Notes: generated from the sequence alone by a model not told the origin. A DNA stretch of 64,000 nt from a bacterium (GCA_037134655.1 JBAXLR010000002.1:6888-70887); one strand, 5' to 3'. Shown: positions 1 through 64,000, counted from the stretch's first letter. Numbers and translations: made by a program.

Positions 1-279
1 GAATTCTGTTGTTCGTTACAGCAGTCTCTTCTTGAGCAGGCGCGCCAGCGACTCGCGGGTGGTTCGATAAGTGAATCAAACCTTGAAACGATCAACTGCG
101 GAATTATTTCGATCATTGGAAGTGGCTTCTGGCAGAGTCCGGAGACGCTCGATACGGTGCGGAAAATTACTCCCGACGCATTATTTTTTGATGTTAAAAA
201 TTCTTGCCTTACGCTGGCAGTCAGTCCCGAAAAAGTTGAGCGAGTTGTGAAGTCACTTCATAACTCGCTAATCTCTTGA
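1..279 (+). CDS. 3' end of an ACT-domain enzyme, most likely aspartate kinase (partial, runs off window start)
   Basis: Frame 1 is open from base 1 to TGA at 277-279. The translation ...INCGIISIIGSGFWQSPETLDTVRKITPDALFFDVKNSCLTLAVSPEKVERVVKSLHNSLIS looks like the C-terminal ACT repeat of aspartokinases. It is absent from the ORF track because it has no start in the window. Confidence 0.5.
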   Translation, partial: EFCCSLQQSLLEQARQRLAGGSISESNLETINCGIISIIGSGFWQSPETLDTVRKITPDALFFDVKNSCLTLAVSPEKVERVVKSLHNSLIS

Positions 280-373
280 TCGTTAATCTTCTGGCTTTTT
301 ATTCAAGATTCATCAAGAATCCGACGCCAATGGTCGTTGCAGATCTTCCGGCCAAAATCGCTGGAGCAAATCC
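124..373. repeat. Left copy of a 250-bp direct repeat (partner 4076-4325)
   Basis: It aligns at a constant offset of 3952 with 12 mismatches and no gaps by manual alignment. It covers the last ~50 codons of the ACT-domain gene, the spacer, and on the minus strand the stop plus last 24 codons (299-373) of the OMP gene whose intact copy is at 4251-5084. Confidence 0.95.
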
Positions 374-382
374 TCTATAACA

Positions 383-410
383 GCACCCAGATCCCGACGT
401 GATGTCAGTG
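383..410. repeat. 28-bp perfect direct repeat, left copy (partner 3842-3869)
   Basis: gcacccagatcccgacgtgatgtcagtg occurs identically at both positions. This copy lies 9 bp inside the left 250-bp repeat boundary. Confidence 0.9.
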
Positions 411-875
411 GACTTGACTTTAAGTATTCGAGACCTACATCTGCTCGATCAGTGCTCATTCAGTCGGATGTCTCGTTTTACCGTTCCTGTGCAAGCGCAT
501 CGTAGGCAAATGGCATAGTATTTATGCGTCAAGTATAACACACCAAGATCAAACGGCAGTTTCGGCAGGTCGATATTTTTCCTGAGTTTCCTCGGGTCAG
601 TTGGGTAGAACGACATCTTGTCTGGAACGCTGTGCAGAGAAGATGTCCGAAAGGCACTGATTTTTTTCCTAGCGCCAAGATTTAATCTTTCATCACGCGT
701 CATCGGAGTTTATATGGCTAGTCTTAGTCCTGGCGATTGCCATCGTAATCAACGGAGTCTTCTTAGCGAGAATTTAAACCAAAGTTTTCTTTGGACCCAG
801 CCAAGGGTATACCCAGGGTGGCAGTCTTTTCTTGGGCCCACCAAAACATAGATAAATCGGTTTTATGCTGGTTGT

Positions 876-3407
876 TTAGCGCACTGGTGCTAAAGTCTCG
901 CGTCTAAACACAAGTGCTTTCAACAGCTCTGTTGTAAAAACGTATCCAACAACAATAAGTAACACGACGGCCATAAGATCGGCAGATAGCGGGACGAATC
1001 CCATAGCCCCAGCAAACGGCAAGTAAGGGATCGCCAGAGCAACGACGCCCACCGCGACCGTCAACTTTAATAACAGTCGTCCGGGTGAACTCTTATAGAC
1101 CGGTCTTCTCGTTCTGACCACCAACGCCACGACTAATTCTGTTAAAAGCGATTCCACGAACCATGTCGTTCTAAATTCTTGTGCTCCAGCGGAATAAAAC
1201 ACAATTAAAACACCAAAAATAACAAAATCAAAAAATGAGCTCACCAAACCAAATTCAATCATGAATCGCTTTATATAGCTCATATCCCATCGACCAGGTC
1301 CAGCGACTAATTCATCATCTACACTGTCTGCCGCAATCCCGATGGCAGGGATATCCGAAAGAAAATTGTTAAGCAAAACCTGCCCAGCCAACAACGGCAG
1401 AAACGGCAGAAATAGGGACGCCACCGCCATACTGATCATATTCCCCAAATTAGCACTCATGGTGATCAAAATGTATTTGAGGGTATTGGCAAATGTTTTT
1501 CGGCCCTGCTCTATGCCCTGCTTGATCACATCGAGGTCGCGCTCGAGCAACACAAAATCTGCAACATCACGAGCGACGTCTACGGCACTATCCACTGACA
1601 GACTGGTATCAGCTGCATGCATAGCGGGCGCATCATTTACACCATCGCCGAGAAAACCGACAACCGCCCCCATTTTTTTGAGAGATAAAATAATTCGTTC
1701 TTTTTGGTTTGGATCAACCTCCGCAAAGACGGTTGTGTCTATTGCGCTATGCCAGAGGGCCTCATCATGAAGCTCATCGAGGTCTTTACCCGTTAATGTT
1801 TTTTGAGCATCTAAGCCAACGGCACGTGCTACATTTTGAGCAACCGATTTCGAGTCGCCCGTTATAATCTTTATTCCAACACCAAGCTTTTCCAGGCTCT
1901 TGATCACATCAGCTACCCCAAGTTTCGGTCGGTCTAAAAATGTAAGAAAGCCTAGAAAACTCATCTCCTCCTCATCATCGCGAGTATAATTATCACCGAG
2001 AATCAATCGTTTGGTCGCTACCGCTAACACACGGATACCTCGCGATGACCATGCTTCATAGTTCTTCGTAATCTCGTCCCGATGTCCCTCCGTTATCACT
2101 GAACCGTCTCCTAACATCGTGCAGCTGGCCATTACGGTAGGAAAAGCTCCCTTTGTGATCAAAACCCGCTCACGACCACCACTCTCTATGATCACACTCA
2201 TCCGTTTCCGGATAAAGTCGTATGGAATTTCGGCAAATTTCACAGGAAGATGAACAGTGCCAACACGCGCGGCAATAGCTTCATCCAACGGATTTTTCAA
2301 GCCAGTTTGTAGCAAAGCATTGATAGCAGCCTGACTCAATACTGCTGTGCTTTCGACTCCATGCCAATCGTAAGCCCCAGAAAGCTCCACAACGCCTTCA
2401 GTTAAAGTTCCCGTCTTATCAGTGCACAGAACCGTCATGCTACCAAGATTTTCAATCGCATTGAGATTTCTAACAATCACGCCCTTTTTTGCCATCAGAT
2501 TTGCTGCCGTTGCCAAATTCACATTTAAAATAGCTGGTAATAATTCCGGGCTTAAGCCAACTGCAAGAGCAATAGAAAACAGTAACGACTCTATCATTGG
2601 CCTCTCAAGGATTAAATTCGCAATGAACACAATTAGGGTCATCGCCAGCATTGCTATCGTTAGAAAATCACCAAATTTTCTTATTCCGCGTTCAAATTCG
2701 GTTTCAGGAGCACGAAGTGATAGACGCTTAGCAATACCACCGTACTCCGACCTGGGGCCCGTACGAACAACAACGCAGGTACCTATTCCCGCCCTAACGT
2801 TAGTACCCATGAAAACACTGTTTAATCTCTTAGACAGTTCAACCTTCGGGGGTAAAACAGCAGGCTCTTTTTCAACCGGAAAACTCTCGCCTGTCATCAC
2901 GGCTTCATTTATAAACAAATCCTTCGCTGTTAAAACTCTTGCATCAGCCGGCACGAGACTTCCTGCCGACAGCACAAACACATCACCAGGCACTAACTCT
3001 CGCACATCAATAGAGATCTCCACCCCATCGCGAAGAACCCGCGCCTTAGTTTGCAGTCTATCTTTGAGCTGTCTAACAGCAACCTGAGCGCTGAATTCCC
3101 TTGAGTATCCAATACCGACGGATCCAGCTAATATCAGCATGATGATTGAAGAGTCGACCCATTCACCGCTAATCATGGACACCACTGCGGCGATTATAAG
3201 AATCCATAAAAGATGACTTTTAAGCTGGTTCCATAAAATCCTGCCCTTAGACAACCTAATCTCTTCTTTGACCTCATTACGACCATACTCTGAGATTCTC
3301 ATATTTGCTTCTGCCGTACTCAGCCCATGGAACGATGAGTCCAGCGAATGTATAAGCTCAGTTTCAGAAACACTCCAGAATTGATTTATAACGATTTTTG
3401 AACTCAT
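876..3407 (-). CDS. mgtA: Mg2+-transporting P-type ATPase (MgtA/MgtB-like, P3B)
   Basis: P-type motifs TGES, CTDKTGTLT and GDGVNDAPA are present. The TM4 motif PELLP resembles the MgtA PEMLP. The ORF track starts at GTG 3422, but ATG 3407 (MSSKIV) has a GGGGAG RBS 7 nt upstream. Confidence 0.85.
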   Translation of the reverse strand: MSSKIVINQFWSVSETELIHSLDSSFHGLSTAEANMRISEYGRNEVKEEIRLSKGRILWNQLKSHLLWILIIAAVVSMISGEWVDSSIIMLILAGSVGIGYSREFSAQVAVRQLKDRLQTKARVLRDGVEISIDVRELVPGDVFVLSAGSLVPADARVLTAKDLFINEAVMTGESFPVEKEPAVLPPKVELSKRLNSVFMGTNVRAGIGTCVVVRTGPRSEYGGIAKRLSLRAPETEFERGIRKFGDFLTIAMLAMTLIVFIANLILERPMIESLLFSIALAVGLSPELLPAILNVNLATAANLMAKKGVIVRNLNAIENLGSMTVLCTDKTGTLTEGVVELSGAYDWHGVESTAVLSQAAINALLQTGLKNPLDEAIAARVGTVHLPVKFAEIPYDFIRKRMSVIIESGGRERVLITKGAFPTVMASCTMLGDGSVITEGHRDEITKNYEAWSSRGIRVLAVATKRLILGDNYTRDDEEEMSFLGFLTFLDRPKLGVADVIKSLEKLGVGIKIITGDSKSVAQNVARAVGLDAQKTLTGKDLDELHDEALWHSAIDTTVFAEVDPNQKERIILSLKKMGAVVGFLGDGVNDAPAMHAADTSLSVDSAVDVARDVADFVLLERDLDVIKQGIEQGRKTFANTLKYILITMSANLGNMISMAVASLFLPFLPLLAGQVLLNNFLSDIPAIGIAADSVDDELVAGPGRWDMSYIKRFMIEFGLVSSFFDFVIFGVLIVFYSAGAQEFRTTWFVESLLTELVVALVVRTRRPVYKSSPGRLLLKLTVAVGVVALAIPYLPFAGAMGFVPLSADLMAVVLLIVVGYVFTTELLKALVFRRETLAPVR

Positions 3408-3520
3408 GTTACGGCTCCCCACCTCTGAGCTCCGTCTTACCTGAGTTGCAGATCGCCATCACTAGTTAATTTGAATGAGCACGCTCGCTGCGGATTAAAC
3501 TAAAAATCAATAAGGACGAT

Positions 3521-3910
3521 TTAACTCGCCCTTCCTTTGGAACTGCTTGGGTTGATGTAGCATCTTAGTTTCGCTTGTCTCTCCGCTCCCATTCGTAAGA
3601 CATTTGCCTTCAAATCCGCGTGGCGGGCAATTAATTCATTGAACTGGGTTTTGCTCAGCTTAAATACATCGCAATAGGTTGCTGCAGTTTCATCTGTTGT
3701 GCGCTTAAATTCACTAATTAGCGCCATTTCACCAAAAGAGGATCCTGGACCGAGAGCGGTTATGAATTGGTCGCCCATGTGTACGTTGATTGTACGGTGC
3801 CCTATCAGTAATATATTTTCTCCGATATGATATCTCAACCGGCACCCAGATCCCGACGTGATGTCAGTGCAAGGGTGGTGTAATGTACTCACCGGTGGTT
3901 TTCCTTGCAT
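3521..3910 (-). pseudogene. 5'-truncated cyclic-nucleotide-binding domain gene
   Basis: Only the C-terminal half of a cNMP-binding domain is recognisable (GSSFGEMALISEFKRTTDETAATYCDVFKLSKTQFNELI). Recognisable similarity stops at the 28-bp repeat (3842-3869), and the N-terminal 20 aa of the ORF look non-homologous. Confidence 0.55.
3842..3869. repeat. 28-bp perfect direct repeat, right copy
   Basis: Identical to 383-410. It lies inside the truncated cNMP-binding ORF. Confidence 0.9.
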
Positions 3911-4075
3911 GCCGGAGTCAAAGTTGAGTGCATAGACCGTGCAGGCTTAAGAAAGCTTTTTCATTACGGTGGCCGGTTAGCAGGGAATCGGTCGTTGCTG
4001 AGCTGATCCCAACCAGATGATCCAGGTCCTGCCAGGAAACGAACCTGCCCAGCACACGGTGAGCCTAACGACTCT

Positions 4076-4325
4076 GGCTTTTGGCAGAGTCCGGAGACGC
4101 TCGATACGGTGCGGAAAATTTCTCCCGACGCATTGTTTTTTGATGTTAAAAATTCTTGTCTGACGCTGGCAGTCAGTCCCGAAAAAGTTGAGCGAGTTGT
4201 GAAGTCACTTCACAGCTCGCTAATTTCTTGACCATTAATTTTCTGGCTTTTTATTCAAGATTCATCAAGAATCCGACGCCAATTGTCGTTGCAGATCTTC
4301 CGGCCAAAATCGCTGGAGCAAATCC
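4076..4325. repeat. Right copy of the 250-bp direct repeat
   Basis: See 124-373. This copy is contiguous with the intact OMP gene. Confidence 0.95.
4082..4231 (+). pseudogene. Start-less fragment duplicating the last ~50 codons of the ACT-domain gene
   Basis: It translates WQSPETLDTVRKISPDALFFDVKNSCLTLAVSPEKVERVVKSLHSSLIS*. The frame is closed by a TGA at 4004-4006 and has no ATG. Confidence 0.8.
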
Positions 4326-5084
4326 AGCTTCGACTTGAACCGCATCAAACTTATAACCTGCGGCGATAAGTCCGCGTCCGTGAACTCCAATGCCGGAATT
4401 GACCTCGTAACCCCAATCAGCCGATTTAGCTGCGCTGGCACTCCCATTTATGCTTGCCATCATATAGGCAAGGCCCAGACCCGCTTCGGTTCTCAAGACA
4501 AAATTGTCGCGTGAAAATAAGTTATAGGACAGGCCTGCGGTTGCTGCGAGTGCATTAGCTTTAAACTCTCCCACTTCGCTCTCGCCAAAAACAACCCTTG
4601 AGGTTCCACTGATCGTATAGATGCTTCCGCGAGCAAATCCATCAACTTGGCCTAAGAACCGGCTTCGTATAGCCTGTCCGCTGATTTCGTAGCCGGCTGA
4701 ATCTGCGCCTGCTCCAAAGGTTGTAAGACCCACGGAAGAGCCAATTAATAAATTCGCTGGACGACGATACGTTTTATATCTTTGCATTACTGGCGAGCTC
4801 CCGTCCAACATGGCGTAGGAGTCGGCTTGCGTGTCAACCTGACCCATAACTTGTTGAAGTTGAACCGAGCGTTTTGATCCATTCATTTTCGTGACTTTTC
4901 CAGTCGCAATAAGTTCGCCTCGATCAGTGAAAAAGCCAAGCTCATCACCTGAGACGATGCTTTTGTCGTTGACCACACAGACGTCATTACGAGGGCTGCA
5001 ATTAAATCCTCGTCCGAAGGCTGCGCTTGGCGCTAGGGCCAGAATGCAGGCATATTGAAGCATTTTTTTTGTACGAGTGTTCAT
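4251..5084 (-). CDS. Secreted protein, putative outer-membrane beta-barrel
   Basis: It has a signal peptide (MNTRTKKMLQYACILALAPSAAFG) and a Gly/Ser/Ala-rich alternating C-terminal half. An AAGGAG RBS lies upstream. I recognised no family. Confidence 0.6.
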   Translation of the reverse strand: MNTRTKKMLQYACILALAPSAAFGRGFNCSPRNDVCVVNDKSIVSGDELGFFTDRGELIATGKVTKMNGSKRSVQLQQVMGQVDTQADSYAMLDGSSPVMQRYKTYRRPANLLIGSSVGLTTFGAGADSAGYEISGQAIRSRFLGQVDGFARGSIYTISGTSRVVFGESEVGEFKANALAATAGLSYNLFSRDNFVLRTEAGLGLAYMMASINGSASAAKSADWGYEVNSGIGVHGRGLIAAGYKFDAVQVEAGFAPAILAGRSATTIGVGFLMNLE

Positions 5085-26968: not shown

Positions 26969-27005
26969 TATGAGGATTTAGTCTATGGTTTTTCGAGGAG
27001 GAAAG

Positions 27006-28019
27006 ATGCGCGCTGATAATCAGAACTCGCGCCTTACGGGCGAACGGTTCAAACAGCCAAAGCCCATGATTCAAACAACCACCCTTTGGGATTTTCCTAG
27101 TCAGCACTATGGTGATAACGAACAAGGTGATGGAGAATACGCTGGGGTGACGCCGAGTTATGTCATCTGGAACCTGCTGCAGCGCTATACCAAGCCTGGC
27201 GCTTCTGTGCTTGATCCGATGTGTGGAAGTGGCACAACCCTAGATGTTTGCAAAGATTTAGACCGCAGTGGAGCTGGTTTTGACATTTCACCCACGCGAG
27301 CTGATGTGGTCAAAGCGGATGCGCGTCGACTACCAGTTAAGGATGCGACAGTTGATTTTGTTTTTGTTGATCCCCCGTATGGTACTCATATCAAGTACAG
27401 TGGAGATCAAGCTTGTATCGGGGAACTGGATCAGCGTGGTCCAGACTACTATGCGGCCATGGAAAAAGTTTTCGCTGAAATCTACCGAGTGCTGAAAGAT
27501 GGCGGTTACGCTGCCGTCTACATTCAAGACTCCTTTGCAAAAGGCAAGGATTTTGCCCCGCTTGGATTTGAGTTATTTTTAAGAATGTCGGTATTGATGC
27601 AGCCTGTCGATATTGTCTGTGTGACGCGTCATAACAAAAAGCTCAAGCGTAACCATTGGCACACCTCAGCGATTGAGGGCAACTTTTTCCTGAGGGGGTT
27701 TAACTATCTCTTCATTTTTAGGAAAAATGTCAGAAAGGATTCGGAGCGACTGTCCCATGCTGATTCTGGCGCTCTGTCCTTTTATTTCAGACAGGTCGCA
27801 AAATCTAAGCCTGGAGAAGTGGTGACCCCCGAGGCGCTCGCCCAGGCTATCGCGACAGATCGACAAATTCTCGACAAGAAATTGGTACGCAAAGAGGGCA
27901 AAAAGAATTTCAAGAAAATGGCAAGAGAACAGCAGAAGCATCATTTTAAAGGTAAAAATAACGATGCCAAGCGTCCTGGGCGGTTTGAACCCAAAGGGAA
28001 AGGGCAGAAGAAGCCATGA
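27006..28019 (+). CDS. SAM-dependent DPPY-type methyltransferase (N6-A/N4-C DNA or RNA base MTase) with a Lys-rich tail
   Basis: It has WDFPSQHYG ... LDPMCGSGTT (motif I) followed by VDPPYG (motif IV). ATG 27006 is preceded by a GGAGGA RBS. The ~45-aa C-terminus is K/R-rich. Confidence 0.7.
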   Translation: MRADNQNSRLTGERFKQPKPMIQTTTLWDFPSQHYGDNEQGDGEYAGVTPSYVIWNLLQRYTKPGASVLDPMCGSGTTLDVCKDLDRSGAGFDISPTRADVVKADARRLPVKDATVDFVFVDPPYGTHIKYSGDQACIGELDQRGPDYYAAMEKVFAEIYRVLKDGGYAAVYIQDSFAKGKDFAPLGFELFLRMSVLMQPVDIVCVTRHNKKLKRNHWHTSAIEGNFFLRGFNYLFIFRKNVRKDSERLSHADSGALSFYFRQVAKSKPGEVVTPEALAQAIATDRQILDKKLVRKEGKKNFKKMAREQQKHHFKGKNNDAKRPGRFEPKGKGQKKP

Positions 28020-45492: not shown

Positions 45493-46344
45493 TTAACCTT
45501 TACTTGACTCGGGAGCTAACAGATCATCAAATGGAATAGAGATTTGATCCTGCTGTTTTTTTGTTTTTTTTCCGGATGCATTCTTTTCTTGTTTTTTTGA
45601 CTTGACGGCGGTGGCCGGCATTTCAATGCCGAGTTGAGTACAAACCAGTCTAGTCATGCGCATTGGCGACCCCGCCGCATTTTTTGCCAGATTTAGGACT
45701 TGACTTGCATCGAGCGTTCCTCGTAATGACGGATGCTTGAGAAGTTTTCGGTTAACTAGTTCAGCAAGTTCTTGATCTGAAAAAGATGGTAGAGCCTTTA
45801 CATAAAGAATACGGCTTTCAATTGGTTGGCAGTTTGACAGCGATTGCCAAAGGGAATCGGCACAAGAAACAACGATCGAAAGCTTGATTCCGCTGGCGTC
45901 AGCAAGGTTCAGCAGGGCAGACAGCTCACCCGCCGTCTGGTCCGGGTCAGCCAATTCGTTGACATCGAGACAGATCATAATTGGTCTTTCTGTGTCTTTT
46001 AATCCAGACAATCTCAACTGAAATTGTCTGGTATTTTCTGAGTCACTCGTCAGCCACTGAGACAGCCCTTGAGAAATCCAGCCTGTATGCATGGATGGCG
46101 CTGTCGGGTTAAGTACTAAAATATCGGCGAATTCTGCCCCAACAGTCGCTAGCTGACGGATGAATGTTGTCTTGCCAGCACCTATTTCTGCATGAATGCC
46201 TATGACTGCATTGGCCGATTTCGTGATTTCAAGAATATCGTCATGCACTGATTTCCAAGCGGCGAGCTCCAGCTCTTCCGTTATAGGTGGTCTCGAGAAA
46301 AGAATCCCGATGGCGGCGGAGTCGACAATTGTTTTATTCATCAT
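45493..46344 (-). CDS. ExeA/MshM-like P-loop ATPase with a Lys-rich tail
   Basis: Walker A is AEIGAGKTT. The Walker-B-like strand is IMICLDVNE, where DV replaces the usual DE. The tail reads KSKKQEKNASGKKTKKQQ. Its ATG overlaps the upstream stop (ATGA at 46341-46344). Confidence 0.65.
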   Translation of the reverse strand: MMNKTIVDSAAIGILFSRPPITEELELAAWKSVHDDILEITKSANAVIGIHAEIGAGKTTFIRQLATVGAEFADILVLNPTAPSMHTGWISQGLSQWLTSDSENTRQFQLRLSGLKDTERPIMICLDVNELADPDQTAGELSALLNLADASGIKLSIVVSCADSLWQSLSNCQPIESRILYVKALPSFSDQELAELVNRKLLKHPSLRGTLDASQVLNLAKNAAGSPMRMTRLVCTQLGIEMPATAVKSKKQEKNASGKKTKKQQDQISIPFDDLLAPESSKG

Positions 46345-55976: not shown

Positions 55977-56687
55977 TTACGCGTGAATTTTCTGCCATTT
56001 GCGGTTGTACCAAGGCATTCCCTTAAGATCGAATCGCCGCAGGAAAAGACTAGAGTAATCTTCAGACTTAAACACCGGTAACAAGTCTGTTTGTTTAAAG
56101 CCTTGAGTTTCAACAAATGAACACGCATCGGTAAAGTAGGGAAGATGGTCGGTTTTTAGCCAGAGGAAACCTCCGGGTGAAAGGATGTCCCAAGCGGTGG
56201 CGCAAAACTCTGGGGCATACAAACGGTAGTGGGCGTGCTTTTTCTTTTTCCAGGGATCAGGAAAAAATGTGACAAAGCCACTTACTTCGCCTGGTTTGAA
56301 CAAATCACTCAAGCCTCCGGCATTGGCAAGCACGGCGTACACATTGTCTAAGTTTCGTTGTTCAGCTCGTTCCGCGGTCTGATAGACACGCTTAAATGTA
56401 ATATCGACGGCAACAAAGAGAGCCTCTGGATGGGCTTCTGCCATATCACAAACAGTTTGACCGGTGTGACAGCCGATCTCCACAATAAGAGGTCGATTGG
56501 CTTGATCATCATTTCTCGATTTAAATTTACTTCGCCATTGTCCTGGAAAACCCCGCAAGGCCGCACCAGTAGCTACTTGTAAAGTGGATTTTTGCTGAGC
56601 ATCGATAAGTTTACCGACGTAGGCATTGCTGTTCTTATTGAATTTTGCTGCTACATCAACAAAAACATCTGTGGAGCGAACCGGCAT
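55977..56687 (-). CDS. trmB: tRNA (guanine-N7)-methyltransferase
   Basis: It has FFPDPWKKKKH and the SAM-binding VEIGCHTGQ. The start is moved to ATG 56687 (MPVRSTD) because the tracked ORF's 5' end overlaps the rnpB 3' region. Confidence 0.8.
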   Translation of the reverse strand: MPVRSTDVFVDVAAKFNKNSNAYVGKLIDAQQKSTLQVATGAALRGFPGQWRSKFKSRNDDQANRPLIVEIGCHTGQTVCDMAEAHPEALFVAVDITFKRVYQTAERAEQRNLDNVYAVLANAGGLSDLFKPGEVSGFVTFFPDPWKKKKHAHYRLYAPEFCATAWDILSPGGFLWLKTDHLPYFTDACSFVETQGFKQTDLLPVFKSEDYSSLFLRRFDLKGMPWYNRKWQKIHA

Positions 56688-56762
56688 AAAACAAAACCCC
56701 AATTGGTTATGGCTAATGGCGCGTTGAAGCGCCTTCGATTTTTTTGGCTTGTTAAGATGCGA

Positions 56763-57207
56763 ATACCAGAGGGTCGCAGACTTTGGCAGTTTAGCTATAA
56801 GCCGGATTCTGTCCTCGGTCACGTTACAGTGACCTTGGGCTGCCATTCATCTGGGTCGATTGTTACCAATCGCCTCAAGCGACCTACCCGGGAGACGTCG
56901 AGCCGACGTTCGTCTGGTTTTCACCAGAACCTTCCTCTGTTTGGTCTTGCTCCGGATGGGGTTTGCCGAGCCAGCTTGTCACCAAGCTGCTGGTGAGCTC
57001 TTACCTCACCGTTTCACCCTTACCGCTGACATGCAGAGCACGTCAGCTCGGCGGTTTACTCTCTGTTGCACTTTCCGTCGGGTTATCCCCGCCTGGCCGT
57101 TAGCCAGCATCCTGCTCTGTGGAGTCCGGACTTTCCTCAAAACTTAGCCGATTGGCAAAATTCTGCGACCGCCCACTACACTTGCCCAAAAAACTGCGCC
57201 CTCTGGC
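56763..57207 (-). ncRNA. rnpB: RNase P RNA, bacterial type A
   Basis: The minus strand contains GAGGAAAGTCCGGACTCCACAGAGCAGG, GGTAAGGGTGAAACGGTGAGGTAAGAGCTCACCAG and ACAGAATCCGGCTTATAG. The termini pair as P1 (CCAGAGGGCGCAG / CTGCGACCCTCTGG). The ends are good to about +/-10 nt. Confidence 0.9.
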
Positions 57208-57213
57208 CGCGGA

Positions 57214-57242
57214 ACTCTAAGGCTTGCCTATTTTAAAGTCAA
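57214..57242 (-). promoter_or_regulatory. sigma70-type promoter candidate for rnpB
   Basis: The minus strand reads TTGACT, then 17 nt, then TAGAGT. The -10 element ends ~7 nt before the inferred P1 5' end. Confidence 0.45.
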
Positions 57243-57270
57243 CTATAAAATCCCATAAAATAATCCAGAC

Positions 57271-57657
57271 TTAATGCCTAGGGGGCTCACCGGTTAAAGA
57301 CAGTATTTTATCGTAATCATCCGGACAGTTAGGGTCATTTTGGTTAGCCACATTGCGGGTTAAAGCCCCGCACTTCTGACATTTAAAAATCAGGACAAGC
57401 CCCTTTTTCCCCTCTAACTCATAGGAGACGGCCCTCATGATCCCCTGACAGGGGTTTTCCCGGTCACCTGGGAAGATGTCCACATGTTTACTGGTGAGGC
57501 AAAAAGGGCAGTGGTTTCGACAGCCGGTCTTTGCAACTGGTACAACCCGGCCGCAAGCTTCACAATTAAACGTTTCGTTGAGGTGAGTGAATCTGCCAGC
57601 CATATAATGTTTCCAATTTTCGTCTTTTGGCTCTTTTGCCATCAATAGGAAATTCAA
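57271..57657 (-). CDS. RNHCP-domain (zinc-ribbon) protein
   Basis: It has the literal CRNHCPFC motif plus CEACG and CQKCG Cys pairs. Confidence 0.7.
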   Translation of the reverse strand: MNFLLMAKEPKDENWKHYMAGRFTHLNETFNCEACGRVVPVAKTGCRNHCPFCLTSKHVDIFPGDRENPCQGIMRAVSYELEGKKGLVLIFKCQKCGALTRNVANQNDPNCPDDYDKILSLTGEPPRH

Positions 57658-57739
57658 ACTATAATAGATACCTAGACTTTAGCCCAGTGATTTGGATTTC
57701 GAAATAGACTGAGAGATATTTGGCAGTGGGGATATCACT

Positions 57740-58708
57740 ATGAAGTTTGTGTATTTTTCCGTTTTATTACTTTCGTTTACATCCTGTAAGACAGCCCGAC
57801 CAAACGCGAGTTATGGCAAGCAAGTTGTGACCGCTGCCTCAAACCAAAACACAGATCCTGTTGCCAATGGTATGGCGCAGTTTTTTGCTGAGCTTTACGC
57901 GAAAAACGGCGGAGACATTAAAAAAACGATCGAGGCGCTTGAGGCCTCAGGCCAAGAGGGTGAGGCCGTTAAACGCACCCTTAAAGAGCACTTATCAAAG
58001 CTTCACCAGATAAATGATGAACATCGTCTCAATATAGACTTTCATTTGAATGCTGAGAAGGCGGGCGAAGAACTGCGGTTTATCTCCAATATTCTAGCCG
58101 ACACGAAGTTTAAGGAAAACGTAAGTCTCAGTAAGTTTCTTCGAGAGAACACACCAGTTTTTTGTGTCTATGAACTGGCCCAAAATGGCTTTGATCTAGA
58201 GCGGACATGTATCAATGTGGCGGCCGTGGCAGCGGATGTCTTCGGAGCAATAGCGTCAGGCGAGTTTTTCCGAGACGACAATATCCTGAATACCATTACA
58301 GCCCGAGTTGCTTATAAAGAAACCGTCGACTTTGATAAGTACGCTCAGGTGTTAGCCGGCAAAACTCCGGATGAAGTTTATCAGTGGAGTAAGAAGAAAT
58401 TAGATCTTATCCCCATTGAGAACTCTGCGATTCGTCTAGTCATTGAGGCCCTATCGATAAGAAATGCCTGGATCCAAGCTATGGCCGATGGTGATTTTGA
58501 CGCTGCTGATCGCTACGAGCAAATGGGTTGGGACTTGCGAGGGGAGCAAGGAGACTACAAACGAGTTCTAGAGTACCAAACAAAAGATGATCAACAGACG
58601 GTCGTTGGTCGGTTGGTGCGAATCTATAACCTCTCATTCAATGAGCTGAAAGCGAGAGTCGACAATTATAGTGCATCGTCAAAGTCTTGGTGGCAATTTT
58701 GGAAGTGA
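57740..58708 (+). CDS. Hypothetical lipoprotein (322 aa)
   Basis: It has the lipobox LLSFTSC and a helical, charged body. A decayed partial copy lies at 63536-63690. Confidence 0.6.
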   Translation: MKFVYFSVLLLSFTSCKTARPNASYGKQVVTAASNQNTDPVANGMAQFFAELYAKNGGDIKKTIEALEASGQEGEAVKRTLKEHLSKLHQINDEHRLNIDFHLNAEKAGEELRFISNILADTKFKENVSLSKFLRENTPVFCVYELAQNGFDLERTCINVAAVAADVFGAIASGEFFRDDNILNTITARVAYKETVDFDKYAQVLAGKTPDEVYQWSKKKLDLIPIENSAIRLVIEALSIRNAWIQAMADGDFDAADRYEQMGWDLRGEQGDYKRVLEYQTKDDQQTVVGRLVRIYNLSFNELKARVDNYSASSKSWWQFWK

Positions 58709-58965
58709 CGTTCACAGAGCCATTTTAAATCTCGTCAGTTTCCGCGGCTTTCGTTTTTTGTTTGTCTTAGGCTTCGATCTTCCATTCGGAACTGAAGCTG
58801 CACGTAAATTAGCCAAAATCGAATCACAGTCCCTGACTGAAATGCCCGGGTCACTGTCAGGCCAAAAGAAGGTGAAACCCCGCTGGAATTAATCAAACGC
58901 CTATTTAAAACTAAGGGAGGCGCTCCCTCTTACCTCAAAAAAATTCCAGTCAAAGGAGTAAAACG

Positions 58966-60444
58966 TTGAGACAAAAACTCAAAAAAGGATTGTGTATTGC
59001 CTTAGCCCTCGCCGATTGGAGTGCTAGTGCGCAGAACAAAATCATGACGGAGCGAGATCTTGTTCGTCTGTCCCAAGAGAACTCCATTTTGGGTAAAGCC
59101 TATGATGCACAAGCTGCTGGCAAGGCCGCAGCCCTCGCGATGACCCAGGAAATGTATGGCGCAAGACTTAATGCTTCAGCAAGTCAACTGAAGAGCGGCG
59201 AAAGTCCTCTGACTGAATTTCAACCAACAATGACTCCTGTCAATGAGTACAGCGCCACTGTCCTACAGAAAATGCCATACGGAATCAGCCTTGAAGGAGG
59301 TGTGTTTGCAGGTCAGCGCAGCGCAATGGATCGCAGTTTTGAAAATGCGACACAGGTGGGAGCAAAGCTTTCCTTAAGAATCGAACTTTTAAAAAACCGA
59401 TTTGGATCGATCGATAGTGCGCAGATTGACGCTGCTGAGAGTGGACGGAAACGAGGGGAGCTCGAAAGAAGGATCGCGAGAAAGCAGCATGAAATCAATA
59501 TCCGCAAGGTTTTCTGGAGTTTGGTCGCCAATTGGCAATCCATCGAGCTCTCAAAGAAACTCCAGGAGTCTGCCACCCGCCAGCTTAAGTATGCCGAAGA
59601 TCGACGCCGCATTGGCGCAGCAGACATTGGCGAGATAGCGCGCTACAAGTCACAGTTGCAAAGCCGAGTAGGCTCCGTTCTGCTTTTTGAACATGAAAGG
59701 GAGATGCTGTGGCAAACAATCCAACGCCAGATTAGAGATTTCAATCCGCGCGAGTACAGACTGGATGGAAGTTTTCTTGACAGTAGTCAACGAGCCATCA
59801 CTCAGTGCTTGCAGAAAGTACTGGCGACAAAAACGATTGATCGTGATGCCAGCCTTTTCGACGAGGTCATCGATGCCTATAAAGCTGAACTCACCAATGA
59901 GATCAAAGTTACTGAGCAACATGGATCTCCGCAGCTAGCATTGTTCGGAGTATCACAGATGTCAGGGAGCAATAATAGCTACTCCGCGGCATTTGATCAT
60001 CTCGTCGATAAAAAGCAGACCTCCACTGTTATTGGTTTGGAGCTGGATATACCGCTTGGTAGTAAAGCAACCCATACCGAGCAGGCTTTAATCCAGGCCA
60101 AACGAAATGAAATCGAAGCACAGTACGAACAGCTTCAAAGTGATCTAACTGCTTCGTTTCAAACAATGGATTCAAATCTTCTAATTCTCCAAAAAGGTCT
60201 TCGGAACCAGGCTGATACTAGTACAAATTTGACTATTAGTTATCGTGATACGCTGAAGAAATTTGATCAAGGGCGTGTGCCTTTGTCTGTTGTTATCACT
60301 GAACAGGACGCTCTTTTTCAATCGGAGCTTCAAGAGTTGACGTTAAGAAAGCAGATCACCCACACTCTCCTAGATTATTTCGCTGTCTTCAGCGAGTTTC
60401 CTTGCTCTTGGAATCAGATCAATTCAAATCCTTCAAGCAATTAA
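58966..60444 (+). CDS. TolC-like outer membrane efflux protein (OEP family)
   Basis: It has a TTG start with an AAGGAG RBS and a signal peptide. The two-repeat coiled-coil/beta architecture and ~490-aa size are typical of outer membrane factors. Confidence 0.75.
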   Translation: MRQKLKKGLCIALALADWSASAQNKIMTERDLVRLSQENSILGKAYDAQAAGKAAALAMTQEMYGARLNASASQLKSGESPLTEFQPTMTPVNEYSATVLQKMPYGISLEGGVFAGQRSAMDRSFENATQVGAKLSLRIELLKNRFGSIDSAQIDAAESGRKRGELERRIARKQHEINIRKVFWSLVANWQSIELSKKLQESATRQLKYAEDRRRIGAADIGEIARYKSQLQSRVGSVLLFEHEREMLWQTIQRQIRDFNPREYRLDGSFLDSSQRAITQCLQKVLATKTIDRDASLFDEVIDAYKAELTNEIKVTEQHGSPQLALFGVSQMSGSNNSYSAAFDHLVDKKQTSTVIGLELDIPLGSKATHTEQALIQAKRNEIEAQYEQLQSDLTASFQTMDSNLLILQKGLRNQADTSTNLTISYRDTLKKFDQGRVPLSVVITEQDALFQSELQELTLRKQITHTLLDYFAVFSEFPCSWNQINSNPSSN

Positions 60445-60456
60445 GTGTGAGGCTTT

Positions 60457-63400
60457 ATGTACTCCCTAGGTAAGTTTTTTCTATCAAACTATAAGTTCAC
60501 AATGGTGATGACTGGATTTTTAATCCTCTTTGGAGTTTCTGGTGTCTTTGGCATTAATTCCGAGTCATTTCCGTCAGTAAATATTGGAGCTGTGGTTATT
60601 ACCACTGCGTATCCCGGTGCCACGGCTGAGGATATCGAAACTAAGATTACGAAGCCCATTGAAGACGAGGTCCAAAAAGTCTCTGGTTTGAAGTCCGTCA
60701 AATCAACGAGTCAAGCCGGATTTAGCACCATTGTGACTGAGGTTGATATCGATAAGTACCCTGTTGAGAAAGTGATTGCTGACTTACAGCGTGCTGTAGA
60801 TCGAGCCAATGGCTTGCCGACAGACTTGCTGGAGAAGCCGCTTTTTACGGAAATAAAGTCTGATGAGTTTCCCGTCATTGAAGTTGCTGTCATTGGTGAG
60901 AATATCAATCGATTAAGAGACCAGGTCGTCGATGAGCTTCAAGAAGATCTTAAGGATAACAAGAAAGTCTCCAGCATCCAGCTATCAGGATTTACTAAGC
61001 GTAGGTTCAATATATTTCTCAGTCTTGAAGGTCTGAGAAACAACCATGTTTCAATCGAGGAGGTGCAAAATGCACTTGCACAGAGAAATGTCACTATACC
61101 CGCAGGTGAATTGAAGGGTGAGGAAACCCAAAAGTTGGTTCGGATTGAAGGTAAGGCCAAGTCCATCTCTGAACTCGAAACCATCGTGATTCGTTCTAAC
61201 TTCTCTGGTAGGCGGGTGCTGTTGCGTGATGTTGCCAGGATCGAAGACGGCGCAGAAACGCCGACTACGCTGGCTCGCTACGGTGGTTCGCCAGCCGCAT
61301 TCTTGGTAATAGCCAAAAAAAGCGGCGCAGACATCATTGAACTTGCTAAAGATGTGCAGCAAGTAATGAGGATTTATGGAGAAAAATATCAGGGTCAACT
61401 TGAGTTCAAGGTGTATTCGGATGAAGGTGTCAGAGTTGGAGACCGTTTAAACGTTCTGATTACCAATGGTTGGCAAGGAATCGTACTTGTTGTTTTTTTC
61501 TTGCTTCTGTTTCTTCCAGGTAAGGTGGGATTGGTGACGGCATTCTCTCTGCCGCTCGCTCTGGCGGCAACGTTGGGTACAATCAACACGGCGGGATATA
61601 CACTCAATACTATTACTATTATCGCACTTGTGATTGCGATAGGTATGCTCGTCGATAACGCGGTCGTAATAAGCGAAAATTTCACCAGGCTTCGAGATGA
61701 AGGCCTAAGTGTTGAAGAGTCTCTTCTAAAGACCATTAGAGACCTTTGGGCTCCGGTCGCTGCGACAGGTCTCACTACTATTGCCGCCTTTTTGCCAATG
61801 ATGGTCACCACCGGTGTCGTGGGGCAGTTCATAAAAGCAATTCCAATAGTTGTAACATTGTCTTTGATTCTCTCTCTTCTTGAGAGTTTTCTTTTTTTAC
61901 CAGCTCGTTTGAAGTTGATTTCCTACAAACCAAAAAGCCAAGGTTCCGATCGTAAGCTCGACTTTTTTGATAGACGAATCGTGCCAGTTTTTGAGGCCCT
62001 CATGAGCCGCATTGTGGCCTACAAGTGGATAGCGCTTGGTGGATTTTTCTTGATACTGATAACGACAGGCATTGTTCTTGTGAAAGGTAACAAGATTAAT
62101 ATGTTCCCTTCAGATCAGACAGAAATATACTTAGTAAGGGTTGAGACCGAGAAGGGCACGAGACTTGAAGCAACAGACAAGCTAATTTCTGACGTTATCG
62201 GGAAACTAAAAGGTGAACTGAGTGAAGGAATCGCGCACATCGTGGGGGTATCGGGCTCCTCGGCCACCGATCCCGGGGATCCGAAAGGTGAAGTGGGTAG
62301 TAACGTTGGGTTGATTCGTATATTTGTGGATAAGAAAACTCAAGATACGGTCAAGACTCAAGATGTTCTTCAACAAATTCGTCGAATCACTCACCCCAAT
62401 GTTCGATTGAGCGCAGAAGCACTGGTCAATGGCCCGCCTGTTGGCGATCCGGTTTCGGTTACATTTCGCAGTAATAACGCCGCACAGCTTCAGGAGGTTG
62501 CAGAAAAAATCAGAGTCCGAATCGCAAACGAAAAAGGTATTTTTGATTCGAAGATCGATGATATTTTTGGTGATGATGAGATCACGCTCAGTATTGATTT
62601 TGAACAAATATCGAGACTTGGCTTAAATCTGAATAGTATTGGCCTGAGTATTCGGACTGCAGTTGCAGGTTCGACTATTGGTGATGTCAATATTAATAAT
62701 CGTAAGGTTGATTACTTTCTGCAATTTGACCAGCGTGACCGAGCTTCTAGCGAGGGTCTGGCATCTATCAAAATTACTGATCCGAACGGTAATTTAATTC
62801 CGTTAGCTAATCTTACGAAGCTCCAGGAAAGGTCGGGTTCACCGCAAATTAAGCGGTACGATTTCAGACGTGCTAAAACCGTCACTGCAAACTTGGATGA
62901 TTCAGTCATAACATCGATTCAGGCGAACGATATTATCAAGTCGGAGTTTATGAAGATTAGCAAGAACTATCCTGAAGTATCGATCGTATTTGGTGGAGAA
63001 GCCGAGAAGACTACTGAGTCTTTTCAGTCACTATTGGTTGCACTTGTGCTTTCGTTAATTGCCATTTTCGCCCTCATGGTTCTGATCTTTCGCTCCTACA
63101 TTAATCCATTCATCATCGTTACGACGATTCCTCTCGGGCTGACAGGGGTGTCATTTGCTTTCTGGATTCAGAATATGGATTTTAGTTTTATGGCCCTTAT
63201 CGGTGTTATAGGTCTTGGTGGAATCATAGTTAACTCTGGAATTATACTAATGAGCTTTATCGAGCAGATGAGAGTTGAGACGACGATGGATCTCCATGAG
63301 ATTCTCGTGAAGGCGTCAGCAGTCCGACTTCGGGCTGTTTTGGTAACTTCTCTCACGACTATCAGTGGTTTGATTCCAACGGCTTACGGCATCGGAGGAA

Positions 63401-63534
63401 GTGACTTCTTTATCATTCCTATGGCTATGGCCCTGGCATGGGGTTTGACGACAGGCACGATCTTGACGCTGCTATGGGTGCCACCGGCTTACGCCATTAG
63501 TGAGACCTTGACATCATTTTTTAGGAAAGTTTGA
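60457..63534 (+). CDS. RND-family efflux transporter permease (AcrB/CzcA superfamily)
   Basis: It is 1025 aa with 12-TM topology and two large periplasmic loops. The N-terminus is typical (SFPSVNIGAVVITTAYPGATAEDIE). Confidence 0.9.
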   Translation: MYSLGKFFLSNYKFTMVMTGFLILFGVSGVFGINSESFPSVNIGAVVITTAYPGATAEDIETKITKPIEDEVQKVSGLKSVKSTSQAGFSTIVTEVDIDKYPVEKVIADLQRAVDRANGLPTDLLEKPLFTEIKSDEFPVIEVAVIGENINRLRDQVVDELQEDLKDNKKVSSIQLSGFTKRRFNIFLSLEGLRNNHVSIEEVQNALAQRNVTIPAGELKGEETQKLVRIEGKAKSISELETIVIRSNFSGRRVLLRDVARIEDGAETPTTLARYGGSPAAFLVIAKKSGADIIELAKDVQQVMRIYGEKYQGQLEFKVYSDEGVRVGDRLNVLITNGWQGIVLVVFFLLLFLPGKVGLVTAFSLPLALAATLGTINTAGYTLNTITIIALVIAIGMLVDNAVVISENFTRLRDEGLSVEESLLKTIRDLWAPVAATGLTTIAAFLPMMVTTGVVGQFIKAIPIVVTLSLILSLLESFLFLPARLKLISYKPKSQGSDRKLDFFDRRIVPVFEALMSRIVAYKWIALGGFFLILITTGIVLVKGNKINMFPSDQTEIYLVRVETEKGTRLEATDKLISDVIGKLKGELSEGIAHIVGVSGSSATDPGDPKGEVGSNVGLIRIFVDKKTQDTVKTQDVLQQIRRITHPNVRLSAEALVNGPPVGDPVSVTFRSNNAAQLQEVAEKIRVRIANEKGIFDSKIDDIFGDDEITLSIDFEQISRLGLNLNSIGLSIRTAVAGSTIGDVNINNRKVDYFLQFDQRDRASSEGLASIKITDPNGNLIPLANLTKLQERSGSPQIKRYDFRRAKTVTANLDDSVITSIQANDIIKSEFMKISKNYPEVSIVFGGEAEKTTESFQSLLVALVLSLIAIFALMVLIFRSYINPFIIVTTIPLGLTGVSFAFWIQNMDFSFMALIGVIGLGGIIVNSGIILMSFIEQMRVETTMDLHEILVKASAVRLRAVLVTSLTTISGLIPTAYGIGGSDFFIIPMAMALAWGLTTGTILTLLWVPPAYAISETLTSFFRKV

Positions 63535-63535
63535 T

Positions 63536-63690
63536 GGCGAGGGTGGGGCCGTTAAACGCACCCCTAAAGAGTACTCATCGAAGATTCAGCAGATTGATGG
63601 AGATCACACCAGTTTTTTGTGTCTATGAACTGGCCCAAAATGGACAATTATAGTGCATCGTCAAAGTCTTGGTGGCAATTCTGGAAATAG
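63536..63690 (+). pseudogene. Mosaic remnant of the 57740-58708 lipoprotein gene
   Basis: Three collinear blocks match the intact gene. 63536-63600 matches 57951-58020 (diverged, 3-nt gap). 63606-63643 matches 58151-58188 (38/38). 63644-63690 matches 58662-58708 (43/47). The frames are broken. Confidence 0.85.
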
Positions 63691-63799
63691 GCGCATATGA
63701 ATTTAAATCCCAATTAATACAAATAGTTATAATAATCTAAAGTTTATTTCCGTTTAAGCCGAAAGACTCTTAAAACTGAGTGGTGTTGAGGGTCGTGGC

Positions 63800-64000
63800 A
63801 TGCCTAGGTCTCTGTTTCTAATTAGTTTTATCCTCGCTTCAATCTCAATGGCGAGTTGCCAAAAATCTAGTACTACTGCATCACCTAATCGAGGTGACGT
63901 TGGCGGTGGTGGGACAACTTCTGAGGGTGAGATTGAGCACGAAGTTAGTGGCATGATCGCTAATGAGGAACCAGTTGAATTTGTTCAGTCAATGGACTCA
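63800..64000 (+). CDS. Putative lipoprotein, 5' part (runs off window end)
   Basis: ATG 63800 gives MPRSLFLISFILASISMASCQKSS, with a lipobox Cys, and the frame stays open to the window end. The tracked minus-strand ORF 63754-63954 is probably its shadow. Confidence 0.5.
   Translation, partial: MPRSLFLISFILASISMASCQKSSTTASPNRGDVGGGGTTSEGEIEHEVSGMIANEEPVEFVQSMDS

Follow-up and report, generated by a model that had tools for sequence, protein, structure and literature searches.

The window analyzed here, a 64,000-nt stretch of bacterial DNA (GCA_037134655.1, JBAXLR010000002.1:6888-70887), carries near its right end a TolC-like/RND efflux cassette placed between an intact putative lipoprotein gene, designated G, and a patchwork of three pieces of that same gene. 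This patchwork is most likely a non-functional recombination scar and not the end of a new mobile element. The comparison with related sequences, all of them metagenome contigs, indicated that the cassette is not ancestral at this locus and arrived specifically in the lineage of the window. In our best reading, the structure belongs to a known kind, namely the scar of a homology-anchored additive recombination or of a 3'-end displacement at a hypervariable locus.

Anatomy of the efflux cassette and the patchwork

The elements of the locus are listed below; B1, B2 and B3 are the blocks of the remnant, Lpp2 is the gene that follows it, and L015 and L019 are related contigs.

57636-57665, plus strand: promoter-like site upstream of G (TTGCCA, 18-nt spacer, TATAAT; 11 of 12 matches)
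57740-58708, plus strand: gene G, putative lipoprotein of 322 aa, intact, ending TGG AAG TGA (open reading frame and family search)
57956-58023, 58145-58188 and 58661-58704, plus strand: segments of G that are the sources of B1, B2 and B3, respectively
58709-58952, plus strand: spacer of 244 nt containing a hairpin (58913-58929)
58953-63536, plus strand: efflux cassette, delimited by its homology to L019 (78.5% nucleotide identity)
58966-60444, plus strand: OEP/TolC-like outer-membrane factor, 492 aa, TTG start
60457-63534, plus strand: RND permease (AcrB/ACR_tran), full length, 1025 aa
63539-63606, plus strand: B1, copy of G positions 217-284, 56/68 identical (82%)
63600-63643, plus strand: B2, copy of G positions 406-449, 43/44 identical (98%)
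63643-63690, plus strand: B3, copy of G positions 922-965 (58661-58704 against 63643-63686), 43/44 identical (98%), then ATAG
63687-63799, plus strand: intergenic region, about 74% identical to L015, with the ribosome-binding site GAGGG before Lpp2
63800-64000, plus strand: 5' part of Lpp2, a second putative lipoprotein gene that runs off the window and whose first 8 or so codons are kept in L015

The repeat search, performed on positions 56500-64000 and on the whole window (top families), revealed that G and the remnant share three collinear direct repeats. The patchwork begins 2-4 nt after the stop codon of the RND gene (TGA, 63532-63534) and, as the preliminary description of this DNA had proposed, consists of one diverged and two near-identical pieces, so that a transporter module lies between an intact gene and a decayed partial copy of it. 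The 23-nt core of B3 occurred twice in the window (allowing up to three mismatches) versus never in 100 shuffles. The remnant ends in TGG AAA TAG and G in TGG AAG TGA, that is, in the same Trp-Lys-stop with a synonymous codon and another stop. At the join of B1 and B2 an imperfect repeat of 5-7 nt (GAACA) was observed, with 121 nt removed and the frame shifted, while B2 and B3 overlap by 1 nt. The three blocks are out of frame with one another, and each of them is nearest to the window's own allele of G.

The blocks differ in their divergence from G, with 12 changes in 68 positions for B1 versus 2 in 88 for B2 and B3 together (Fisher p = 0.0012). By reading of the alignment, at least 10 of the 12 differences of B1 are specific to the remnant, and most would alter the encoded residue, in keeping with a pseudogene. 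The stretch from which B1 derives is also the most variable part of G among nearly identical strains: between the window and contig L018 it shows 8 differences per 100 nt, as against 0-7 elsewhere. The B2/B3 junction, CCCAAAATGGACAATTATAG, gave no match in an exact scan of metagenome contigs, and no Rfam match was obtained over 58600-64000 at E values up to 1. The consensus fold of the remnant and the intergenic region was weak (-12.5 kcal/mol over 164 columns).

Several other roles for the patchwork were considered and rejected. A silent donor cassette serving to vary G was discarded, since the blocks are mutually out of frame and a transfer would delete 121 nt from G. B1 as a native allele of G, displaced by an imported one, was discarded as well, because B1 matches the G of the window at 56/68 positions versus 43/68 for L011 and 42/68 for L015. 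Finally, a diversity-generating retroelement was rejected: the open reading frames scanned in the window gave no match to a reverse transcriptase, and adenine is present in either copy at only 6-7 of the 12-13 differing positions, as counted from the alignment of G and remnant. A 40-codon open reading frame runs through the first two blocks (63531-63653), its ATG overlapping the RND stop (TGATG), with B1 read in the +1 frame and B2 in the frame of G. Two substitutions in B1 remove a stop that G has in this frame. The reading frame is probably due to chance.

The cassette begins at the ribosome-binding site, 13 nt before the TolC-like start codon, and ends 2 nt beyond the RND stop; its two genes are 12 nt apart. 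In L019, a contig from the same sample as L009, the homologous pair covers exactly 58953-63536. It is flanked there on one side by a gene of more than 3300 codons and on the other by a TetR-family gene whose start lies 4 nt behind the RND stop. The same order, OEP-RND-TetR, was observed in a more distant contig (P0045). Since the TetR gene is adjacent to the pair in the relatives and the homology stops at the limits of the cassette, the copy in the window is without the repressor gene and without its native upstream region. The 244-nt spacer that takes the place of the latter resembles none of the sequences located behind G in the relatives, and it has no significant similarity to the upstream intergenic region of L019. 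Its G+C-rich hairpin (GGGAG GCG CTCCC) is terminator-like on the minus strand only, where no gene ends.

The outer-membrane factor and the adjacent full-length AcrB-type permease, together with the TetR gene found immediately downstream in the relatives, resemble a TetR-regulated RND operon. They differ from such operons, and from the tripartite set of which they supply two components, in that the window gave no match to a periplasmic adaptor (HlyD-type) and the contigs L019 and P0045 list none; the adaptor may be encoded elsewhere in the genome. Pairs of OEP and RND genes without an adaptor gene were observed twice in L019 (10001-21455) and once in P0045. Within 57600-64000, the only promoter-like site fronting a gene is the one upstream of G. 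No such site was found in the interval between G and the TolC-like gene, and no terminator-like site was found 3' of the RND gene. The pump would be expressed by read-through from the promoter of G and, with the TetR gene lost, a constitutive expression is predicted.

The composition of 58709-63535, to which the preliminary description had drawn attention, does deviate, but mildly: the G+C content of the cassette is 0.452 versus 0.4725 for the window, and the tetranucleotide z is 2.4-3.2. A foreign origin was not accepted on this basis, the signal being like that of the TamB region and expected for a membrane protein. Moreover, the identity of the cassette to L019 (78.5%) is about that of core genes between the window and L009 (72-76%), and for this reason a relocation within the clade fits the sequences better than an import from afar. 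No terminal inverted repeats were found at the ends of the cargo. The absence of a mobility gene, already pointed out, was confirmed by Pfam scans in which the window's 47 open reading frames of 150 aa or more gave no match to a recombinase, transposase, integrase or resolvase, only 310 nt of the window lying beyond the remnant. The reading frames to which a Pfam family could be assigned are ordinary chromosomal genes, while several matched none.

Variation behind gene G in related lineages

The product of G has a signal peptide and a cysteine (Cys16) shared without exception by 14 orthologues. The protein matched no family in Pfam or NCBIfam, no record of the exact sequence was present in the protein collection searched, and its structure was predicted with a mean pLDDT of 39. 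The family is small (41 proteins found), and the loci named by organism belong mostly to Oligoflexales-type metagenome bins, which suggests a putative lipoprotein family restricted to the Oligoflexales.

The order of genes upstream, YbeY-TrmB-RNase P RNA-RNHCP-G, is kept wherever the contigs reach (L009, L011-14, L016-17 and L025), with amino-acid identities of G to the window of 94% for L009, 89% for L011-14 and 90% for L016-17; contig L015, of the same lineage as L016-17, begins inside G. Nevertheless, in all of these contigs and in L024 the nucleotide similarity to the window ends at position 58708, the last base of the stop codon of G. Behind it, a rhomboid protease gene was found in L009, a DUF1513 gene on the opposite strand in L011-14 and L024, a 213-aa gene in L015-17, and other genes again in contig P0005 and in more distant lineages, giving at least eight different downstream contexts among related, uncultured Oligoflexales. 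Homologues of the TolC-like and RND genes were absent from the G-bearing loci outside the window's own lineage. Five further G loci, obtained in a metagenome scan with the G alignment, showed no remnant.

The closest of the cassette-free contigs, L025, is 96% identical to the window over 57551-58708 (the end of RNHCP, the intergenic region and G) and probably comes from the same species. After the TGA of G, it continues with DNA 97% identical to L010, which leads to a 470-aa lipoprotein gene and ccm genes. The DNA behind G therefore varies even within what is probably one species, and the comparison as a whole suggests that the position immediately after the stop codon of G is a strain-variable hotspot in this Oligoflexales clade, which marks the 3' end of G as a site of rearrangement. 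The relatives that keep the upstream synteny and lack the cassette, L025 among them, bear out the earlier assumption that it is not ancestral here. Conversely, the expected arrangement in which the G of relatives would stand directly before the lipoprotein gene at 63800 was not found in any of them, L025 included.

The gene G, for its part, is a recombination mosaic. In a sliding comparison, a tract at about 57815-58470 was approximately 93% identical to L009, with approximately 78% on either side. By core genes, L011 is nearer to the window than L009 is (TrmB, 89% versus 72%), and this order is reversed inside G. A further copy of G in L010 (1-1180), 95% identical to the window, is similar to it precisely from the lipobox Cys codon onward; the signal peptide and the upstream DNA are different, the copy contains an in-frame TAG, and its downstream side matches L025 and L009. 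It may represent the distal limit of a larger variable region that has copies of G at its ends.

The junction of G, spacer and cassette was confirmed by L018, an independent assembly, 98% identical, that shows the same G-spacer-TolC-RND arrangement and ends at 63356. An artefact of assembly, such as a chimeric metagenome contig joined via short repeats, is scarcely credible as the origin of the junctions. The source is apparently an uncultured lineage with only metagenome contigs as relatives, and the right junction (RND-remnant-Lpp2) is beyond the reach of L018. However, the left junction is reproduced there, the mosaic could not result from a collapse of repeats since B1, B2 and B3 are contiguous nowhere in G, and an analogous layout of gene, cargo and remnant is present independently in L015, L016 and L017.

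These last three contigs, independent assemblies of one lineage, each carry a remnant of the end of G of about 45 nt (L015, 1858-1903), separated from the intact G by the 213-aa gene and without efflux genes. The left edge of the remnant is at G position 923-926 in L015 versus 922/923 for B3, and the end is the same AAATAG. The following 135 nt or so (L015, 1904-2038) are approximately 74% identical to 63687-63823, including the ribosome-binding site and the first codons of Lpp2. At four-fold degenerate sites of G, only 37 of 114 are identical between the window and the L015 lineage, which amounts to saturation; the conservation of the intergenic stretch against this background implies that it is under constraint, and it is presumably the control region of Lpp2. 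L015 keeps this stretch though the gene behind it is cut after about 8 codons. A piece resembling B2 in L015 was dismissed as non-significant (p ~0.15). The protein search with the 66-aa start of Lpp2 gave no matches.

Given the synonymous Lys codon, the other stop and the downstream DNA orthologous to L015-17, the remnant is best regarded as an older end of G. B3, its AAATAG end and the 135 nt or so behind it are positionally orthologous to the remnant of L015-17 and older than the cassette. The cargo being different in the two lineages, that part of the duplicate was not made by the arrival of the cassette, contrary to the earlier proposal that one insertion had generated the whole of it. 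The preliminary description had also named, as a case that would speak against it, a remnant derived from an independent tandem paralogue present in relatives without the efflux genes. The remnant of such relatives (L015-17) comes close to this case, but it is not a tandem paralogue.

Two readings fit this shared remnant. The remnants may be in-place ends of an ancestral G that ended in AAATAG, displaced separately and fairly recently in each lineage, which agrees with their well-formed Lys-stop end. Alternatively, one old 45-nt duplicate may have been held similar to G by gene conversion, a reading favoured by the fact that the intact G copies of all lineages seen end in AAGTGA or AAGTAA, so that AAATAG resembles a shared derived state. 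The fuller form of this second reading, in which a partial duplicate of the 3' end of G lay between G and Lpp2 before the split of the window and L015 and the cargos, among them the TolC-RND pair with additional filler from G, later entered or replaced the gap by unrelated events, is considered rather unlikely. It accounts well for the left edge common within 4 nt, for the common AAATAG and orthologous downstream DNA in spite of different cargos, and for remnants nearer to the G of their own genome (44/48 and 39/48) than to each other (35/48) while four-fold sites are saturated. Nevertheless, 45 nt is near the minimum length for homologous exchange, and conversion across such a repeat would therefore be inefficient. 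Furthermore, the origin of B1 and B2 and their position against the RND stop are left unexplained, and in L011-14, whose core genes are nearer to those of the window, the 3.1 kb covered contain no remnant.

Routes to the present structure

The route that we prefer, with about an even chance of being correct, is a homology-anchored additive recombination at the strain-variable hotspot, with later deletions at short repeats. In the lineage of the window, a conserved OEP-RND-TetR operon would have been added behind G as a copy lacking promoter and repressor, either through a single crossover within G by a circularised fragment bearing part of G and the efflux genes or, equivalently, through pairing of homologous sequence in G while the other end was joined illegitimately. 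An intact G would thus be rebuilt upstream and a 5'-truncated copy left 3' of the cargo. The truncated copy, from about G position 212-217 onward, would retain TGG AAA TAG as its older end, together with the DNA formerly downstream of G, and two later deletions at short repeats would have brought B1, B2 and B3 out of frame. This route is supported by the collinear order of the blocks, by the short overlaps at their joins (5-7 nt and 1 nt) and by their closeness to the window's own allele of G. The layout is the one expected of such an anchor, with cargo between an intact and a truncated copy of G in direct orientation.

The same layout was found a second time at the other end of the window, as the preliminary description had indicated:

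123-410, minus strand: remnant side, composed of A' (123-373) and B' (374-410)
411-4325, minus strand: cargo and intact side, with a P-type cation ATPase (876-3422), a cNMP-binding protein (3521-3910) and the repeat A (4075-4325)

A' and A are direct repeats identical at 239 of 251 positions. Repeat A extends into the 3' end of a minus-strand gene for 277 aa (4251-5084), and A' holds the last 75 nt of this gene plus 176 nt of the DNA downstream of it. B' is a copy of 37 nt (3833-3869) from inside the cNMP-binding gene. In the sense of transcription, the gene is followed by cargo, small patch and 3' remnant, as at G; the structure at 123-4325 is thus analogous to the G locus and a candidate insertion. 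The cNMP-binding domain match covers only positions 36-89 of the Pfam model, and the gene itself may be chimeric at its 5' end.

Several observations weigh against the preferred route. No donor or ancestor with G directly before the cassette was found, the cassette of L019 not being beside G. Neither was an empty site consisting of G, the intergenic region and Lpp2 found among the relatives; the sole conspecific strain without the cassette, L025, differs downstream, and a simple insertion is therefore not demonstrated. Copies made in a single event should have diverged equally, yet B1 differs from G far more than B2 and B3 do, and an extra assumption such as a later gene conversion from G is needed. 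On this route, the closeness of the left edges of B3 and of the L015 remnant, no more than 4 nt apart, would be a coincidence with a chance of about 1% by estimate. At the RND/B1 junction the overlap is merely 1-2 nt, and the limits of the cassette fall exactly at gene boundaries, unexpectedly neat for random breakage. Additionally, the variable region can be seen only as far as the end of the window, 310 nt after the remnant.

A single replicative template switch, in the manner of microhomology-mediated break-induced replication (MMBIR) or fork stalling and template switching (FoSTeS), would produce the duplication and the patchwork in one step, and is considered unlikely. The fork would leave the end of G, copy the efflux genes from the TetR-linked locus and return by three short hops to G positions 217-284, 406-449 and 922 to the end, then proceed downstream. 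Such a process would explain short collinear blocks joined at small overlaps, as well as B', a patch from its own cargo placed between the cargo and the duplicated target in the second structure. It requires no donor with G already beside the cassette, and the divergence of the cassette from L019, like that of core genes from L009, fits an intragenomic relocation. Nevertheless, all the patches would share one age, in contrast to the 18% divergence of B1 and the 2% of B2 and B3. B3 would have started as AAGTGA, but it ends in AAATAG as in L015-17 and runs into orthologous DNA, and the 244-nt spacer has no identified template. To our knowledge, no case of a 4.6-kb copy made by template switching has been documented in bacteria.

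Direct repeats of attachment-site type that include the 3' end of G are present (58661-58704 and 63643-63686), with an analogous pair in L015-17. The last 45 nt of G could accordingly be an attachment site for a recombinase encoded elsewhere, which would exchange promoterless cargo (the TolC-RND pair in the window, the 213-aa gene in L015-17) as integron cassettes, Xer-dependent elements or recombinase-less elements of staphylococcal cassette chromosome (SCC) type do. In two lineages the cargo is bounded by 44-45-nt direct repeats whose left edges almost coincide and whose right edge (TGGAA) is identical, the end of the target gene is restored, the efflux cargo is trimmed from ribosome-binding site to stop codon, and the downstream content differs in every lineage. 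However, none of the open reading frames scanned in the 64 kb matches a recombinase family, a search for additional copies of the site in the window and in the relatives' 21-kb loci yielded none, and no conserved motif was detected at the left ends of the cargos. In addition, B1 and B2 would fall inside the supposed element, the expected empty site is missing from the cassette-free L025, and no palindromic core was evident by eye. This possibility is very improbable. A broader form of it, in which those 45 nt are a dedicated site where a remote recombinase or an unusually efficient short-homology pathway of the clade swaps promoterless cargo, the structure at 123-4325 being a second product, is regarded as hardly probable. 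Were it true, an integron-like cassette system without a local integrase would exist in a little-studied phylum.

Genomic islands inserted at gene 3' ends by site-specific recombinases, including the recombinase-less pseudo-SCC elements at rlmH, also show direct repeats that hold the last codons of a gene, a restored gene and a cargo that varies among strains at one site. The G locus differs from them in that no recombinase gene, further copies of the site or empty site were found, and in that the 44-45-nt repeats have pieces derived from the gene inside them.

Homology-anchored addition, the preferred route, has precedents. In tests for homology-facilitated illegitimate recombination in Escherichia coli, most products were single crossovers of circular molecules, with 109-950 bp of the homologous segment duplicated (Amarir-Bouhram et al., 2011, PMC3240628). 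For the homology-facilitated integration of DNA that does not replicate, PMC5361080 cites de Vries and Wackernagel (2002) and Prudhomme et al. (2002). As in single-crossover (Campbell-type) or homology-facilitated integration, the G locus has one anchor gene, DNA added beside it and a partly duplicated anchor, and no mobility gene is needed. In contrast to the E. coli cases, it is a natural one in an uncultured member of the Oligoflexales, and its truncated copy is without two internal pieces and has unequally diverged parts. With a partial duplication of the anchor already documented for this type of integration (PMC3240628), the special duplication-generating mechanism that had been suggested for this genome does not have to be invoked.

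The locus also resembles the C-terminal displacement described for rhs genes, contact-dependent inhibition (CDI) systems and type VI secretion systems (T6SS). At rhs loci, the proposed cause of 3'-end displacement is homologous recombination involving circular intermediates (Jackson et al., 2009, PMC2935791); for the effector-immunity arrays of T6SS it is a homology-facilitated recombination (Kirchberger et al., 2017, PMC5361080). In these systems, DNA that enters recombines within a gene's conserved part and brings a new 3' end with downstream genes, while the old end is pushed downstream as an orphan, and repeated events would build a variable array. By contrast, G is no polymorphic toxin, its old and new ends encode the same peptide, no immunity genes are present, the cargo is an efflux pump, and no selective logic is apparent for keeping the orphan.

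The locus would thus be a well-resolved natural example, of modest importance, of a chromosomal efflux operon moved behind the promoter of another gene, with loss of its repressor, a datable scar and no gene of a mobile element. If pairs of gene and remnant proved unusually common in the clade, they would serve as a tracer of additive gene gain and suggest an active DNA uptake or an unusual repair.

Neighbouring genes and other features of the window

Upstream of G lie the genes for RNHCP, RNase P RNA, TrmB and YbeY. The RNase P RNA (56782-57184, minus strand) is of bacterial class A and scored 290 bits. The long open reading frame of TrmB (55977-56846) overlaps it by 65 nt, and the true start of TrmB is therefore probably further in; the product in the relatives has 235-236 aa. 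Elsewhere in the window, a DNA methylase (N6_N4_Mtase) was detected at 26985-28019, with no obvious restriction partner among the open reading frames scanned; the protein encoded at 45493-46344 weakly matches a novel STAND NTPase domain.

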